A DNA stretch of 64,000 nt from Bacteroidota bacterium (GTDB lineage Bacteria > Bacteroidota > Bacteroidia > Chitinophagales > LD1): positions 5,463 to 69,462 of the forward strand of contig CANJVG010000002.1 in the NCBI GenBank assembly GCA_947478005.1, in the 5' to 3' direction. The position numbers and the translations under genes were made by a program. Within the stretch, counting starts at the first letter, position 1. Each line of letters opens with the position of its first letter. Below the pieces are notes generated by a model. That model made no database searches. It was not told the origin of the DNA and was given only the letters and a program-made list of their open reading frames with translations. This document shows positions 2,441-53,389 of this stretch, piece by piece.

Positions 2441-3795
2441 AAAGAACGGCAGTCAGTAGTTACAGGTTACACTTTGTGGATTTGATTTTTGACTTTTCGG
2501 GTTTCCGAACTCTCTCATTTCTTCTCTTAGTTTTAATTGTAAATCATCAATCAATCTTTGCGCAAGCATCTTCACCTTATTCTCGCTACGGATTAGGGTA
2601 TGTTAGATCAACGGTCTTTTCTGCCAACAAAGGGATGGGTGAGTTAGCTGCTCCATATTACAGCGCAACAAATATCAACTATACGAACCCTGCCTCTTAC
2701 GCATCTCTTACCAGAACTACTGTTGAGATAGGAGCCAACTTCGATGGGGTAAGTATTATTAAGGACTCTACTTACAAAGCTTCAACCGGCTCTATTAGCC
2801 ATTTTGCTATAGCGTTTGTTCCTAACCCTAAAAAAAACAATTACGCTATCAGCATTGGGCTTTTGCCTTACACCAACATCAACTATACCTTCATACAGAA
2901 TTTCAATGACTCTTCCATTGGTGCTCATCGCGAAATATTCAGCGGCACTGGTTCTCTTTATCAGGTTTATGCAGGAGGGGCTTATAAGGTTAAGGGCTTT
3001 TCCGTAGGTGCGAACCTTGGATTTCTTTTTGGGAAACTTGACTATCAAAAAACAATTGCCTTTCCTGATTCTATAGGCGCTTACGGCACGCGAAATATCA
3101 CTACTCTGAACGTGAAAAGTTTTATGTATAACGTAGGTGTGCAATATCAGTATCGTATTTTTCATAACGATGATGATCCGGATACGCGTAGCGACATCTT
3201 TGCAACTGTGGGGCTTTATGGCTCTGGCGGAATAAAAATGAATGCGAAACTTTCAAACTCTTGGGAGCGGTACGAATACAATCCGACTTACGGCTTAATC
3301 CCTGTAGACACGGCACAGGCGACTTATAATCAAAAGACAAAAATTAATTTGCCCTTTAATCTTGGTGCAGGGGTTATGTTTGGGAACGAACGTTTTTGGA
3401 TGATTGGAACAGACTTTAAATTTATGAATTGGAAGAGCTTCACTTCTCCCCTTAACAATGCGGGATTGAATGATAGTTGGAGACTTTCGTTCGGATTCCA
3501 GATTACCCCGAAGTATGATGAATTGGATAAGAAAAAGTATCTCAGTCGTGTGCAGTATCGCTTTGGTGGTTATTATGGAAAGAGCGAGGTTAATATAGAT
3601 GGTAAGGCGCTTGAGCAAGCTGGTGGAACTATTGGTTTGGGATTTCCCTTTAAATCATTGGGTAGGTTAAATATCACCGGTGATTTTGGAACACGCGGAG
3701 GAAACATAGCGGGTGGTTTTCGGGAGACTTATTATAAAATCACTTTCGGTTTTGTGCTGAACGATATCTGGTTTATCAAACGAAAATTTGATTAA
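2437..3795 (+). CDS. putative outer-membrane beta-barrel protein
   Basis: 452 aa with ATGA overlap with coaX. Signal-like N-terminus ending IFAQA. Aromatic- and Gly-rich, alternating-strand-like sequence with a C-terminal ...ITFGFVLNDIWFIKRKFD. Sits between coaX and lptC. No specific family recognised. Confidence 0.5.
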   Translation: MKRTAVSSYRLHFVDLIFDFSGFRTLSFLLLVLIVNHQSIFAQASSPYSRYGLGYVRSTVFSANKGMGELAAPYYSATNINYTNPASYASLTRTTVEIGANFDGVSIIKDSTYKASTGSISHFAIAFVPNPKKNNYAISIGLLPYTNINYTFIQNFNDSSIGAHREIFSGTGSLYQVYAGGAYKVKGFSVGANLGFLFGKLDYQKTIAFPDSIGAYGTRNITTLNVKSFMYNVGVQYQYRIFHNDDDPDTRSDIFATVGLYGSGGIKMNAKLSNSWERYEYNPTYGLIPVDTAQATYNQKTKINLPFNLGAGVMFGNERFWMIGTDFKFMNWKSFTSPLNNAGLNDSWRLSFGFQITPKYDELDKKKYLSRVQYRFGGYYGKSEVNIDGKALEQAGGTIGLGFPFKSLGRLNITGDFGTRGGNIAGGFRETYYKITFGFVLNDIWFIKRKFD

Positions 3796-4816: not shown

Positions 4817-5743
4817 ATGAAAAAAAAATATCTACTATTAACTCTGCTACTTGCTCTTAATTTTCAAAAGGCAGCACAAGCCCAAACAGTAACCGATATA
4901 GACGGCAATGTTTATAATACCGTTACTATTGGTCCTCAAGTATGGATGCAGGAAAATTTGAAAACCTCCCGCTACCAAGATGGCTCTGCAATAGGTGAAG
5001 TAGAAGATAGCATTAGCTGGGCAAATATATATAATACAAATTCAACAACGCCTGCATGGTGTTATTATGGAAGTGATGCAGCAAACAATGCTACTTATGG
5101 CAAACTCTACAATTGGTATGCGGCAAATGACCCACGCAATGTATGCCCCGCTGGCTGGCATTTGCCTACCGGTTCAGACATCTGACTATTGTCGCTCTAT
5201 TTAGGAGGTGATGCAGTATCCGGCTCTAAATTGAAAGCTACAGTCCTATGGAGTTCTGCTGATTTAAGTGATAATTCTTCCGGTTTCACGGCATTACCAG
5301 GAGGCTTTCGCGCCACTACTGGACTATTCCTCTATATTGGGGATGGAGGATATTTTTGGGACGATTTTGTGTATAATAATGACGGGCAGGGGTTTCGGTT
5401 GGCTTCTGTTATCCAAGAGATACTGCGCGGCTCTGGTGATGATAAAAGGGCTGGGTGGTCCGTGCGTTGTATAGCGGACCCTGTAAATTCTTTACCGAAT
5501 GAGAATATTTTAGATATGCCTATTCAGATATTTCCTAATCCAACCGCAAATAAATTATTTATTGAAACCAATGGCTTGTCAGTAATTCAAGTAAACATTT
5601 ACAATGCCGTAGGCTATTTAGTAAGCCAAAGCAACGAACTCCAAAGAAAAAATATAGATATAAGTCAACTAGCTATGGGAGTTTATATAGCTGAGATAAA
5701 AACCAAACAAGTTAGCGTGAAAAGAAGATGGGTAAAGATGTAA
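4817..5743 (+). pseudogene. FISUMP-domain (TIGR02145-like) T9SS cargo gene interrupted by an in-frame TGA at 5183-5185
   Basis: ORFs 4817..5185 and 5189..5743 share one frame and are separated only by TGA. Together they read a signal peptide, then DGNVYNTVTIG.QVWM.ENL, YGKLYNWYA, GWHLPTGSDI*LLSLYLGG, GFTALPGG.R, GWSVRC. The C-terminus IFPNPTANKLFIE...GVYIAEIKT is a type A Por sorting domain. Confidence 0.75.
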
Positions 5744-6289: not shown

Positions 6290-6497
6290 GTAATCTCATC
6301 CCTTTGAAAATCATTCTCATTCATTTGAGAAACAATCTCACGGCTGTGAGAAATTCTACACGGGTGCGAGAAAGTATCTCAACCCTTTGAAAATGCTTCT
6401 CGTTCGTGTGAGAATACATCTCGTTTCGGGGAGAATGAATCTCACAGCTGTGAGAAATTGTGCACAGCGATGAGATTGAATCTCAAACCTTTGAGAA
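6290..6497. repeat. array 1: ten head-to-tail ~21-bp units, each with the dyad TCTCA-N5-TGAGA
   Basis: Eight units are 21 bp and two are 20 bp, for example acaATCTCAcggctGTGAGAA, tgaATCTCAcagctGTGAGAA and tgaATCTCAaacctTTGAGAA. The array lies 219 bp 5' of the + strand orphan gene at 6716. Confidence 0.85.
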
Positions 6498-6664
6498 TAG
6501 AAATGGACTGCACAGGATTGCAAAATAAATCGAGCATTTCGAATGAAAAATGGCCATTTAGCCAAAATTCATTCATTTATTAGCCTTTTGAAGCTATGAG
6601 ATTCTTTCTCAACTGTGGAAAAAATGTGGTTTTTCTGTGGAAAATTTCAAAAAACCAAGCCATT

Positions 6665-17997: not shown

Positions 17998-18291
17998 GGC
18001 AAAAACCCCTTTTTTAAGGTTAAAATTATCATTTACCCCACCCCAGAGGTGGGTACCCCCTACCTTTGAGGTGGGTGGGTTGAGCAAAAAGGTGGGTCAG
18101 TTCAGCTAAAAACTAAGAGCTCGGAGGTAAAAGCAAAGCGCCCGGAGCCTAAAGGACAGCCCCGCCACCCTTCGGCTCAGGTGCCCGAGCAAAAAGCCGC
18201 GTGACCGATGCAAAAAGCAAAGCCCGCTCACTTTTTCAGTAAACGGGCTGTGGTTTTAGCTAAACGGGCTCTCCCTTTTCTTAAGGATTAA
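17998..18291. repeat. array 2: about 11-14 phase-locked 21-bp units with a phased A/T tract and GC-rich flanks
   Basis: In 21-bp register from 18040: accccagaggtgggtaccccc / tacctttgaggtgggtgggtt / gagcaaaaaggtgggtcagtt / cagctaaaaactaagagctcg / gaggtaaaagcaaagcgcccg / gagcctaaaggacagccccgc / cacccttcggctcaggtgccc / gagcaaaaagccgcgtgaccg / atgcaaaaagcaaagcccgct / cactttttcagtaaacgggct / gtggttttagctaaacgggct. The outer units are degenerate. Confidence 0.7.
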
Positions 18292-41673: not shown

Positions 41674-42039
41674 TTACCTTTCAAAGGTATTGCCCATATT
41701 GCTAGGGCACCTAAAGATTTTTTCACCAACCGAATGGCTTGAACCAGTGAATTCTATTTCCCCTAGGTTTGCAGTAATAATACTAGTTGGCTCTTTTGAG
41801 GCTTGAATAACAGCTAAACCAGTTGCGATGGCAAATACAATGATGGCTGTGAATATATATGCCACCAATTTAATGGCAGAATTTCTTAGGAGAAGCTGTG
41901 ATTTTGAAACTTTCTTTTGATATGGTAAAGAAGCATTTGCAAAAAGGGCATTACCAGTAAGATAAACCGGGTCGTTTTTTACCCAACCAGTATACGACTC
42001 ATTCCCACGGCTTACCTTAAATTGGATGTATTTTTTCAT
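41674..42039 (-). CDS. hypothetical single-TM protein
   Basis: 121 aa with one central hydrophobic helix (LVAYIFTAIIVFAIATGLAVI). ATGA overlap with the upstream ORF. Confidence 0.45.
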   Translation of the reverse strand: MKKYIQFKVSRGNESYTGWVKNDPVYLTGNALFANASLPYQKKVSKSQLLLRNSAIKLVAYIFTAIIVFAIATGLAVIQASKEPTSIITANLGEIEFTGSSHSVGEKIFRCPSNMGNTFER

Positions 42040-42263
42040 ACGGTGGTTTCTGCTTCGTCTTGCAATACCTCATCAAAAATAATCATCAAATCTAACCTTC
42101 CCCCCGTATTTCCCCCGGCCTTGTGAATTTTGGCGTTAAAAAAAATGTTCTGCTTACCGTTAAGAACTGCGCACTGTTTGAGCGCAACACAAACCTCACA
42201 CCTACGACAAATCATAACGCGCGAGTTTGCGCAGTTTAGGTAATCAGAACATTTTTTAGCCAA
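42036..42263 (-). CDS. hypothetical Cys-rich small protein (uncertain; TTG start)
   Basis: 75 codons. The ORF-track start is TTG, and an internal ATG exists (MICRRCEVC...). Seven Cys in the first 40 aa. The stop overlaps the next gene's start. Confidence 0.3.
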   Translation of the reverse strand: MAKKCSDYLNCANSRVMICRRCEVCVALKQCAVLNGKQNIFFNAKIHKAGGNTGGRLDLMIIFDEVLQDEAETTV

Positions 42264-42267
42264 AAGT

Positions 42268-42432
42268 CACACAGCCTTGAACTTTTGGTTCTTTTGGTTC
42301 AAGCCAAAAGAACGTTTACTATATAGAAAAACTGCCATTGCCAGTGTTTTAGCATAGCTTACCAAAACCTCACAGCCTTGATTTTTTGGTCCTTTTGCAT
42401 CAAGGCAAAAGGACAGAAACCAAATAGAAAAA
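42268..42432. other. two copies (103 bp apart) of a ~65-nt element with two interlocking stems and compensatory substitutions
   Basis: Minus-strand copy A: TTTTTCTAT..GTTCTTTTGG-CTTGAA-CCAAAAGAAC-CAAAAG-TTCAAGGCTGTG. Copy B: TTTTTCTAT..GTCCTTTTGC-CTTGAT-GCAAAAGGAC-CAAAAAA-ATCAAGGCTGTG. Confidence 0.6.
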
Positions 42433-42526
42433 CACACCCCACCTCTACACCAAACCCTTTTCAAAAAGCGAATTTTGCTGTCAAAAGAACAACCAATTTA
42501 ACAACCCCTCCAAAACACCCCCACTC

Positions 42527-42736
42527 GCGGTCATCCATCATTAGAGCGCGGTCATCGGTCATAATGGCGCAGTCACTCATCATTAAGCCGCGGTCATCGG
42601 TCATAATTTCGCGGTTATTCATCATTTAAGCGCGGTTTCCCATCATTTTCCCTCGGTCACCCATCATTTTAACAACTCCCTCCATCACTCCCCAGCGTCA
42701 CTTCATCATAATCCTACGGTCAACCATCATTAACCT
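42527..42736. repeat. array 3: exactly ten contiguous 21-bp units (210 bp), + strand consensus GCGGTCAnCCATCATTAAnnn
   Basis: gcggtcatccatcattagagc / gcggtcatcggtcataatggc / gcagtcactcatcattaagcc / gcggtcatcggtcataatttc / gcggttattcatcatttaagc / gcggtttcccatcattttccc / tcggtcacccatcattttaac / aactccctccatcactcccca / gcgtcacttcatcataatcct / acggtcaaccatcattaacct. No phase slip. Confidence 0.9.
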
Positions 42737-42743
42737 CCGGTAT

Positions 42744-42786
42744 AAAACAAAAATGCCGTTGCGTTCTTTCAAACCACAACGGCATT
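42744..42786 (-). terminator. rho-independent terminator of 42830..43564
   Basis: The minus strand reads AATGCCGTTG-tggtttgaaagaacg-CAACGGCATT followed by TTTTGTTTT. Confidence 0.75.
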
Positions 42787-42829
42787 CCGTCTTTTGTATT
42801 CAAGTCCCCTTTAGGGGATTTAGGGGTTT

Positions 42830-43564
42830 CTACTTTTTCTTCTTAGTAGGCTTTCTAAACTTAATCTTCGTCACCAACTTAGCCCTTGCCGAGCTAAACC
42901 CAGCCGCCCCCTGCACATAATCCTTACAAGCCGCAGCCCTCACCAACAATCCATCATTCTCATTATAAAGCACCCGATCCCGCTCAATTCTCGACACCTC
43001 CACAGGCGCTATTATAGTTCCAATATTATCATTCGCTGCCTTCATCGCCACCCACAACGTAGTCAACGTAGCCGTCTGCAACGGCACCTCATTCGGAGCA
43101 TAAAAACTATCCGATTTATACAACTCCACCAACTGCCCAAACGCATCCGCCTTCTGCACATAACTCTGATGGCTCGTGCTCACACTATTCGGGTCAGGCG
43201 TCCCGTCCGGCAACTTCTTCACCTTCACCCCAAACCCTCTAATCCTATCCGCCAACCCCTTTGCATCCTTCTTTACTTGTTTGCTGGCTTTTGTGCTATT
43301 AAAAATATTCAACGTCCTTGTCACCAGCTTATTCACCGGCTTATTCAAAATCTCCCGGTCATTAATCGGGTTCTTCGACTTCTGCAACGCCACCGTCAAA
43401 GTAGTATGAGCCGTGTCGCCCGCAGTCCATGCGGTCGTCATGTTCACAATCGTTAGGTCCGTGTTGCTCGGGTCATAATCTGCACCAAAAGCCGTGCAGG
43501 TATCAATCAGCAATTTAAAGTTTGAAATGTTTACAGCGTGTCCTGTTTCTGAAGTGCTAGCCAT
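42830..43564 (-). CDS. orphan family-C hypothetical protein
   Basis: 244 aa starting MASTSETGHAVNISNFKLLIDTC..., with a basic tail KFRKPTKKKK. It is monocistronic with its own terminator. The coding strand is strongly G-rich and C-poor (the + strand line at 43201-43260 has 30 C and 4 G). Confidence 0.65.
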   Translation of the reverse strand: MASTSETGHAVNISNFKLLIDTCTAFGADYDPSNTDLTIVNMTTAWTAGDTAHTTLTVALQKSKNPINDREILNKPVNKLVTRTLNIFNSTKASKQVKKDAKGLADRIRGFGVKVKKLPDGTPDPNSVSTSHQSYVQKADAFGQLVELYKSDSFYAPNEVPLQTATLTTLWVAMKAANDNIGTIIAPVEVSRIERDRVLYNENDGLLVRAAACKDYVQGAAGFSSARAKLVTKIKFRKPTKKKK

Positions 43565-53077: not shown

Positions 53078-53287
53078 TGTATTTTTTGTCGAAGAATGAA
53101 TGCGTTATGTCGTGCGACAGAGGGGTTACTTCTTTAGACAGATAGGTCATGTCGTGTGACATGAGACTTACTTCGTTAGACGGAGGGGCTATGTCGTAAG
53201 AAGCAGGGTTCCTGTCGGGAGACGGAAGATTAACTTCGTTTGACAGAAGGTTTCCTTCGCACGAAGCAAACCTACCTTCGCGCGACA
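53078..53287. repeat. array 4: exactly ten contiguous 21-bp units (210 bp) with core (T/C)(G/T)TC-N4-GA(C/A)(A/G) dyads
   Basis: Dyad cores such as tgtcgtgcgaca, cttcgcacgaag and tgtcgtgtgaca recur exactly every 21 bp. The GACA/GAAG/GACG end of the core falls at 53119, 53140, 53161, 53182, 53203, 53224, 53245, 53266 and 53287. The array ends 54 bp 5' of the ATG at 53024. Confidence 0.9.

Positions 53288-53347: not shown

Positions 53348-53389
<42 letters not shown>

Follow-up and report, generated by a model that had tools for sequence, protein, structure and literature searches.

What is the role of two related hairpins that stand in tandem ahead of a small bacterial gene? The question is raised by a 64,000-nt stretch of DNA from a Bacteroidota bacterium (Chitinophagales; LD1), positions 5,463 to 69,462 of contig CANJVG010000002.1 (assembly GCA_947478005.1), called the window in this work. 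An initial annotation had described two ~65-nt elements with interlocking stems at 42268-42432, and had suggested either a pseudoknot or mutually exclusive structures, as in an attenuator or riboswitch, in the 5' leader of an operon. We consider it probable, though far from settled, that the two copies (A and B) are 5' cap modules of a modular structured intergenic repeat, which occurs in several copies per genome and is probably mobile or selfish.

The two copies and the complete element

The intergenic region 42040-42829 contains, read 5' to 3' on the minus strand, the terminator of a gene for 244 amino acids (aa), an array of 21-nt units, a G/T-rich stretch, copy B and copy A; 3' of copy A comes a long, strongly paired region and then, 41 nt on, the ATG of a 121-aa gene at 42039. 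On the minus strand, copy A is GTTCTTTTGG-CTTGAA-CCAAAAGAAC-CAAAAG-TTCAAG-GCTGTG and copy B is GTCCTTTTGC-CTTGAT-GCAAAAGGAC-CAAAAA-ATCAAG-GCTGTG. Each has a perfect 10-bp stem (P1) and a 6-nt loop complementary to a strand 6 nt downstream. The minus-strand sequence bears out what had been reported of them, namely perfect stems, loops that pair 3' of the hairpin (CTTGAA/TTCAAG and CTTGAT/ATCAAG) and three double changes between the copies (T:A to C:G, G:C to C:G and, in the loop-to-downstream pair, A:T to T:A). The 70-nt units align without gaps at 77% identity, with a spacing of 101 nt, and RNA folding of the 70-mers gives the 10-bp hairpin in both (-16.4 and -18.6 kcal/mol, z about -2.6). When both strands of the window were scanned for the same layout (stem perfect over 8 bp or more, 5-8-nt loop exactly complementary to a segment within the next 25 nt), copies A and B were the only two sites.

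Covariance models were built from other loci for the full element (R1, seed of 24 sequences) and for the module only (R2, seed of 20), with the window excluded from both seeds. The window copies were recovered, and the homologues show covariation. The features of the two copies are:

42270-42319, minus strand: copy A, P1-pseudoknot module, with P1 at 42288-42313 (sequence and model R2)
42304-42313 and 42288-42297, minus strand: P1 arms of copy A (sequence)
42298-42303, minus strand: P1 loop CTTGAA of copy A (sequence)
42282-42287, minus strand: A-rich linker of copy A (sequence)
42276-42281, minus strand: pseudoknot strand TTCAAG of copy A, then GCTGTG (sequence)
42371-42420, minus strand: copy B, orphan or truncated P1-pseudoknot module, with P1 at 42389-42414 (sequence and model R2)
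42405-42414 and 42389-42398, minus strand: P1 arms of copy B (sequence)
42399-42404, minus strand: P1 loop CTTGAT of copy B (sequence)
42377-42382, minus strand: pseudoknot strand ATCAAG of copy B (sequence)
42323-42332, repeated at 42424-42433, minus strand: 5' flank GTTTTTCTAT, common to copies A and B (repeat comparison)

Both copies are thus real, but the picture of two ~65-nt elements has to be revised, as copy A is not free-standing and extends about 190 nt further. Its continuation was recognised because similarity with the one viral contig (L055) matched by a pattern of the module's 3' half runs well past the module. This similarity consists of GGCTAAAAA, TAAAC-N6-AACTCG and CTCAAACAG-N6'-TTCTTAACG, where N6 and N6' are complementary in both sequences; helix P4 is fully compensatory, with tgcgca/tgcgca in the window and catccg/cggatg in the viral contig. 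R1 matches 42080-42319 across all 204 model positions (142.7 bits, E 6.5e-27). Folded with DNA parameters, this segment gives -51.5 kcal/mol (z -7.4), and its rod carries the invariant unpaired motifs GCUAAA, AACUCG, CUCAAACAG and UUCUUAACG. The complete element is laid out as follows:

42080-42319, minus strand: full-length family member, made up of copy A and a long rod-like core (model R1)
42239-42257, minus strand: P3 5' strand, pairing with 42140-42158 over 19 bp (inverted repeat 95% complementary; family alignment)
42222-42233, minus strand: P4 5' strand TGCGCA (42228-42233) and invariant AACTCG (42222-42227) (compensatory against L055)
42183-42221, minus strand: variable apical insert of 39 nt between AACTCG and CTCAAACAG (alignment; CUNCG in most relatives)
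42168-42182, minus strand: invariant CTCAAACAG (42174-42182) and P4 3' strand TGCGCA (42168-42173) (alignment)
42140-42158, minus strand: P3 3' strand, with bulge motif TTCTTAACG (42158-42166) before it and TTTAACGCC (through 42132) after it (family alignment)

A run of eight T at 42138-42145 was considered as the intrinsic terminator of a small RNA and rejected, since in the family alignment part of it belongs to the P3 helix and a conserved UUUAAC bulge. Two open reading frames (ORFs) are most likely spurious, one on the element core (42036-42263, TTG start, 75 aa) and one of 65 aa spanning both modules (42267-42464).

The flanks described as conserved are indeed shared by copies A and B, but GTTTTTCTAT is part of a local duplication of ~100 nt, and the upstream flanks of other family members are not conserved. 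A scan of genome contigs for the flanking 10-mers GTTTTTCTAT..CAAGGCTGTG gave 40 matches, all by chance, among them a cluster in Flavobacteria with 70-nt spacing inside a dGTPase-like gene; hence this 5' flank is a local feature of the duplicated region in the window. As for the conserved 3' flank, CAAGGCTGTG has to be reassigned, being part of the pseudoknot strand and the start of the next helix.

Structure model and covariation

The structure model was derived from 24 compact members aligned with MAFFT (alignment A1). From 5' to 3' it consists of P1, the A-rich linker, the loop-pairing strand, GGCU, the long-range helix P2, P3, P4 and an apical junction. P1 has 10-16 bp, its 5' arm rich in pyrimidines and its 3' arm in purines, and the strand after the linker pairs with its entire loop, forming a pseudoknot. 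An asymmetric internal loop, GGC-UA-AA / UU-CUUAAC-GCC, occurs twice, flanking P3. P4 is a helix of 7-9 bp, and the apical junction AACUCG / CUCAAACAG encloses a variable hairpin, which is CUNCG (5 nt) in most members and 39 nt long in the window.

The fold is selected as an intramolecular structure. In A1, 83.2% of cells are paired, against 61.4% in shuffled alignments and 34-50% when the 3' partner is slid, and the covariation score is 0.50 against 0.16 shuffled. In the model alignment of 95 hits from 76 sources (A2), the corresponding figures are 88.3% against 59.6% and 35-51%, with a score of 0.544 against 0.129. Double changes are seen in 43 of the 46 pairs of A2; P4 is 95% paired and all nine of its pairs covary. 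RNAalifold recovers P1 and P4 independently. The pseudoknot columns were left unpaired in the covariance model, so that their pairing was not fitted; even so, the pseudoknot helix is formed in 86-88% of the 95 sequences, with AU (28), UA (25) and CG (16) at the apex pair. Loop and partner take the forms CTTGAA/TTCAAG, CTTGAT/ATCAAG, CTTGAC/GTCAAG, CCTGCC/GGCA(C)GG, CTCGCC/GGCGA, AGAT/ATCT and GTGG/CCAC, and the loop pairing is kept in dozens of homologues with differing sequences. The pseudoknot suggested for the two copies therefore holds for the family: a loop pairs with a downstream strand, with covariation, as in an H-type pseudoknot. Stems of 10 bp nearly always have a 6-nt linker and longer stems one of 7-16 nt, with a weak correlation (rho 0.21, p 0.14). 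Comparison by eye of the linker as a mirror or a direct repeat of the purine arm (triplex or alternative pairing) gave an ambiguous outcome.

Copy B belongs to the same family. R2 scores it at 69.5 bits (E 6.8e-17) and copy A at 60.0 bits (E 2.6e-14), with no further match over the 64 kb of the window. On the minus strand at copy B, R1 finds no full element and no core rod behind it; only a short remnant lies 3' of the module (TTTTGG..GCTAAAAC), which marks copy B as a truncated tandem duplicate. Orphan modules are rare elsewhere, with two (L058 at 9452 and L142 at 1581) among 64 module matches. As copy B keeps a perfect stem and loop pairing despite ~23% divergence, the P1-pseudoknot module seems to be constrained by itself.

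Distribution of relatives

The pattern CTCAAACAG-N7-TTCTTAACG led to four further viral places and at least 120 metagenome loci of diverse contexts, with AACTCG just upstream in 104 of the 131 pattern matches listed. At least five full copies and one orphan lie on a single prophage contig, which has terminase genes, and several metagenome contigs hold extra copies. The module is matched at 98% identity in a phage contig from human faeces, and a plasmid of the cultured Cytophagales species Chondrinema litorale bears a copy (99.6 bits).

The core also matches Ralstonia megaplasmids. With a 206-nt Ralstonia copy as query, 453 places were found in 135 records of the plasmid collection (134 Ralstonia, 1 Variovorax), with 2-10 copies per Ralstonia record among the matches listed, and the model built from Bacteroidota detects the Ralstonia copies at E ~2e-6. 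The Ralstonia version retains a P1 hairpin, with TCTTGC as the loop and CAAGA or CGAGA as the partner strand, and also an enclosing helix; its apical segment is AAACTCG-CTTCG-CTCA(A/G)ACAG, and the CUUAAC bulges are absent. The family thus spans phyla. A metagenome subtype lacks P1 and is closed by CGTAAAAAGTC/GACTTTTTACG, which indicates that the pseudoknot module is accessory to a conserved core.

No repeat or terminator family of Rfam accounts for the element. Rfam 15 gave no gathering-level match in the window, with only noise around the site at E<=10, and nothing at the element in 17 member loci (E<=0.1); the Ralstonia locus showed only hairpin-shaped miRNA noise. No copy was found in E. 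coli genomes, and the literature on Bacteroidota and Ralstonia repeats yielded no named repeat matching the element. Apparently, the family is uncatalogued and spans Bacteroidota, their phages and Betaproteobacteria.

Genomic context, gain and loss

The copies face either way, favour the 3' ends of genes and are often arranged as convergent pairs. Sixty-one copies had callable genes on both sides: 22 lay between convergent and 6 between divergent genes, and between co-directional genes 13 were sense and 20 antisense. Their orientation to the neighbouring genes is thus unbiased and sites between convergent genes are enriched. Many copies start 0-12 nt after a stop codon or right after a terminator U-run, and overlaps of more than 60 nt with a called ORF of at least 100 aa are few among the 95 hits. 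No conserved promoter-like motif was seen upstream of family members, and among the member loci no recurrent protein family was found beside the element. Convergent copy pairs, a few to a few hundred nt apart, were found at six loci (L074, L065, L113, L128, L135 and L151) and also in Ralstonia.

Copies come and go between strains. At an ABC-transporter locus, the element is present in Ralstonia sp. RRA.1 and in none of the R. solanacearum-complex strains listed at the orthologous locus. Between chlD and cbiE, strains RUN2279 and T117 have a symmetric block of ~600 nt, in which two convergent copies are framed by a G/T-rich tract on one side and a C/A-rich tract on the other. PSI07 carries a single copy, and the intergenic region of Po82, 60 nt long, contains no copy and no R1 match. 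In the window lineage, four homologues of the upstream 244-aa gene keep a downstream 21-nt array without the element, so that the element is an insertion between the 244-aa cassette and the next gene.

Several observations were made around these copies. In Ralstonia records CP025986.1 and CP144383.1, the chlD-cbiE region holding the element pair also has an annotated transposase (IS5 family in one), and the repeat block there may be an insertion hot spot. In T117 the G/T-rich tract is a (GGGTTGGTGTT)n array of ~25 units directly after the chlD stop codon; other strains have a much shorter, degenerate form of it. G/T-rich tracts stand ahead of the element in both phyla, and that of the window lies at 42434-42520, ahead of copy B (gggtgttttggaggggttgtt...ggtttggtgtagaggtggggtgtg). 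Prophage copies have GGGGTTAGGGGTGTGTT ahead of P1 and, on both sides, a second small repeat made of a CCCCTCTTGAGAGGGG hairpin and TTAGGGGTGTG, often with GTTACGAG; it is located at 3215-3244 and 3467-3501 of L055 and also in the flanks of L059 and L175. In Ralstonia, an analogous GC hairpin, GTCCCCTGCCGGGGCCGAC, stands ahead of the copies. These intergenic repeats appear to be mosaics of modules. Five Logan/ENA short-read contigs of the organism of the window (L042-L046) start within ~12 nt of one another, at ~42123-42135. These starts fall within the 3' part of the element, shortly past the T8 run on its 3' side, and a repeat, a hairpin or strain variation may be the cause.

These contexts bear on the proposal that the tandem pair acts in cis as the 5' leader of the operon that follows, with the hairpin and the loop-downstream pairing as its two alternative states, a proposal that we now find hardly credible. 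The loop-downstream pairing is real, and in the window the element points the same way as the 121-aa gene, which starts 41 nt downstream. However, the loop pairing does not compete with the P1 stem, as both can coexist in a pseudoknot, and P1 is followed by CAAAAG or CAAAAA and not by a U-tract, so that neither copy offers a terminator/antiterminator pair. Family members are also found in antisense position, at sites flanked by convergent genes and in the intergenic DNA of prophages, with unrelated neighbours, and no related element stands upstream of seven distant homologues (36-46% identity) of the 266-aa protein encoded downstream. The ORF that gave the "42263 operon" its name overlaps the element core and is the 75-aa frame judged spurious above, and copy A is the front of the 240-nt element. 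With stem and loop pairing compatible, no U-tract, unbiased orientation and unrelated neighbours, mutually exclusive structures of the attenuator or riboswitch kind are not supported, and regulation of the downstream 121-aa and 266-aa genes by the element as a leader is largely refuted. Upstream of one distant 266-aa homologue (L050) we noted an unrelated duplicated element of ~40 nt with a GAGCTTGCGAGCTC palindrome (1078-1118 and 1208-1245).

RNA gene or single-stranded DNA site

The folded strand could belong to an independent family of multicopy structured non-coding RNA genes, producing an RNA of ~200-240 nt whose loops bind a universal RNA-binding factor and which the pseudoknot protects or positions. 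Freely covarying helices with unpaired motifs invariant across phyla are a classic signature of functional RNA, the A-rich linker and H-type topology are like those of known RNA pseudoknots, and on the modelled strand there is a slight overall excess of G-U over A-C (133 against 94) and of pyrimidine-pyrimidine over purine-purine mismatches (262 against 46). We nevertheless judge an RNA gene unlikely. The upstream sequences have no conserved promoter, many copies beginning 0-12 nt past a stop codon or terminator U-run; a conserved terminator is likewise missing on the 3' side; the copies are oriented at random to flanking transcription; and Rfam has no matching family. Moreover, G-U makes up ~1% of cells in P1 and P4, no commoner than A-C, unlike in typical RNA families. 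The motifs UUCUUAACG and GCUCAAACAG loosely resemble the NusB/NusE boxA motif.

The strictness of the Watson-Crick pairing, with little tolerance of wobble, would suit another proposal: a single-stranded DNA (ssDNA) site for a HUH (rolling-circle) endonuclease or other ssDNA enzyme, origin-like or end-like, or a non-autonomous derivative of one, with a P1 loop resembling a nick site. The commonest P1 loops with their closing pair are TCTTGATAC or TCTTGAAAC, which resemble CTTG|ATA, the nick site in the Rep family of pC194/pUB110 and phiX174; this is a lead and not a test. The apical CUNCG of 43 of the 95 sequences is GC-GNA-GC on the other strand, presumably the very stable DNA mini-hairpin motif of ssDNA-phage origins, which is again a lead, and copies are present in phage and plasmid DNA. 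Still, no Rep, HUH or TnpA gene was seen near any copy examined, one family subtype lacks P1 altogether, and unrelated loops (CCTGCC, CTCGCC, AGAT, GTGG) keep the pairing, which points to base pairing rather than protein readout of CTTGA. A site of this kind is, in our view, quite improbable.

Neighbouring arrays

The array at 42517-42741, of about ten 21-nt units with a 42-nt super-period, belongs with the 244-aa gene (42830-43564) and not with the element, since all four homologues examined carry a related array downstream. These homologues (L183-L186) are 54-73% identical and lie in unrelated contexts, with 3 to 24 units of the type [C/A]TGA[C/T][C/G]GAT... starting 100-250 nt downstream. 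The 244-aa protein has a confident all-helical predicted fold (pLDDT 88.8), for which Pfam, NCBIfam, PDB sequences and PDB folds offered no match. The array could be translated as the heptad [I/L]-[L/M]-[T/M]-D-[D/N]-x-[A/G], with stop codons in the upstream units. A TIGR-Tas or C/D-box array, considered for weak snoRNA-like Rfam noise and UGAUGA/CUGA words, was rejected: the units are of 21 nt, where TIGR units are typically of 36 nt (bioRxiv 10.64898/2026.09.09.750476), and the 244-aa protein has no Nop-domain match. A 54-aa ORF on the minus strand (42461-42625; MMNNREIMTDDRGLMMSDCAIMTDDRALMMDDREWGCFGGVVKLVVLLTAKFAF), covering the last array units and the G/T-rich tract, is doubtful, as its hydrophobic tail merely translates G/T-rich DNA.

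Three further intergenic arrays of 21-nt period have different units: 6292-6498, with TCTCA-N5-TGAGA mini-palindromes; 18069-18147; and 53104-53223, with TGTCG-NN-CGACA-type palindromes. These arrays have the appearance of phased binding sites spaced by two helical turns. A perfect (AC)18 run lies at 53351-53386, just upstream of the last of these, the fourth 21-nt array of the window.

Discussion

Our results are best accommodated by a dispersed element of the REP/ERIC/BOX/MITE kind, probably mobile or selfish. Several diverged intergenic copies are found per replicon, and presence or absence was seen at two orthologous Ralstonia loci. Since the unpaired motifs are invariant between phyla, they would be recognised by something common to very different bacteria. 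Such a factor might bind the invariant loops of a folded single strand, which could be DNA exposed in replication or transposition, or co-transcribed RNA; the pseudoknot would then cap or position the 5' end of the fold.

Several points weigh against a dispersed repeat. No transposase, HUH endonuclease or other partner protein was found beside copies. Terminal inverted repeats and a target-site duplication could not be defined, as the filled and empty Ralstonia sites are too diverged, and the convergent pairs could equally be long terminal inverted repeats. Copy number is low, at 1-10 per replicon. Unpaired motifs invariant across phyla are unusual for the lineage-specific REP/ERIC/BOX repeats and suit a functional RNA equally well. 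Finally, wobble against A-C counts are 1 to 11 in P1, 3 to 17 in P2, 7 to 7 in P4 and 8 to 8 in the pseudoknot, while the poorly aligned P3 region has the opposite trend, so that the strand signals conflict between helices.

It is tempting to go further and propose a new class of structured element shared by Bacteroidota, their phages and Betaproteobacteria, in which the loops (the two CUUAAC bulges and AACUCG/CUCAAACAG) would recruit a universal machine, such as transcription-elongation, priming or recombination factors, the full-loop pseudoknot would be of a new type, and the whole would spread horizontally as a small non-autonomous unit. We advance this only tentatively, as an idea more doubtful than plausible.

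If truly uncatalogued, the family is a widespread structured element whose fold, pseudoknot included, is backed by far more covariation than many accepted RNA families. It also has practical consequences: the element gives rise to spurious ORFs (the 75-aa and 65-aa frames of the window are examples), can be mistaken for leaders or riboswitches, and may contribute to breaks in short-read assembly like the five contigs that start near 42123-42135. Ralstonia solanacearum, a tractable pathogen with public transcriptomes and many complete genomes, carries copies (2-10 per megaplasmid record among the matches listed), which makes the open questions directly testable.

Comparison with known systems

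Small RNAs of Bacteroides such as FopS and GibS are multicopy, 65-70 nt long, and have a single-stranded 5' seed and a terminator (PMC11697453); identity with them was ruled out on these features. The tandem pseudoknot units upstream of a gene in the window recall type III toxin-antitoxin systems (ToxI), whose tandem short RNA repeats precede a terminator and an endoribonuclease gene of ToxN, CptN or TenpN type. Unlike ToxI, relatives of the element normally have a single unit plus a rod of 190 nt, and their downstream genes are mutually unrelated. An array of this type was also rejected from the window itself, where the downstream proteins have no Pfam/NCBIfam match and a membrane segment is predicted in the 121-aa product, which sets it apart from ToxN-type nucleases.

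In folded single-strand recombination and replication sites (attC, IS200/IS605 end hairpins, single-strand origins, G4/phiX-type origins), conserved unpaired bases stand beside covarying stems with rare wobbles, as they do here, and function would likewise reside in a folded single strand. The element differs from such sites in that no integrase, TnpA or Rep gene lies nearby and no fixed-orientation cassette arrays are formed. Integron attC sites in particular, which are closed by complementary R'' (RYYYAAC) and R' (GTTRRRY) boxes and adjoin cassettes of uniform orientation, were considered and set aside: by inspection, GCTAAAC and TCTTAAC are both R''-like, direct and not complementary, and orientation to genes varies.

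Like the H-type knots whose A-rich loop 3 runs along stem 1 (luteovirus frameshift; the triple-helix knots of telomerase, preQ1-II and SAM-II), the element has a hairpin loop that pairs with a downstream strand and an A-rich connector across a stem rich in U-A pairs, and connectors tend to be longer with longer stems. Unlike in the known examples, the whole 6-nt loop is paired and the other two connecting loops have zero length; stem 1 has 10-16 bp, and the knot, which may be of RNA or of DNA, has no coding or riboswitch context.

Among dispersed repeats, REP/BIME (20-40-nt palindromes, hundreds of copies, RAYT) were rejected as the identity of the element, whose unit is of 200-240 nt with a pseudoknot and which has 1-10 copies per replicon. 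It has no GTAG-type head and no RAYT, and at the diverged sites compared no terminal inverted repeats or target-site duplication could be defined. Nonetheless, it shares with ERIC/IRU, BOX, Correia and REP/BIME an extragenic location, several copies per replicon in either orientation and often in inverted pairs, an imperfect long palindrome with compensatory changes, and a modular build with orphan or truncated modules and strain-level presence or absence. Where ERIC, BOX, Correia and REP are lineage-specific sequences, the present element, in low copy number, has a covariation-supported pseudoknot and keeps invariant unpaired motifs of 6-9 nt from Bacteroidota to Betaproteobacteria.

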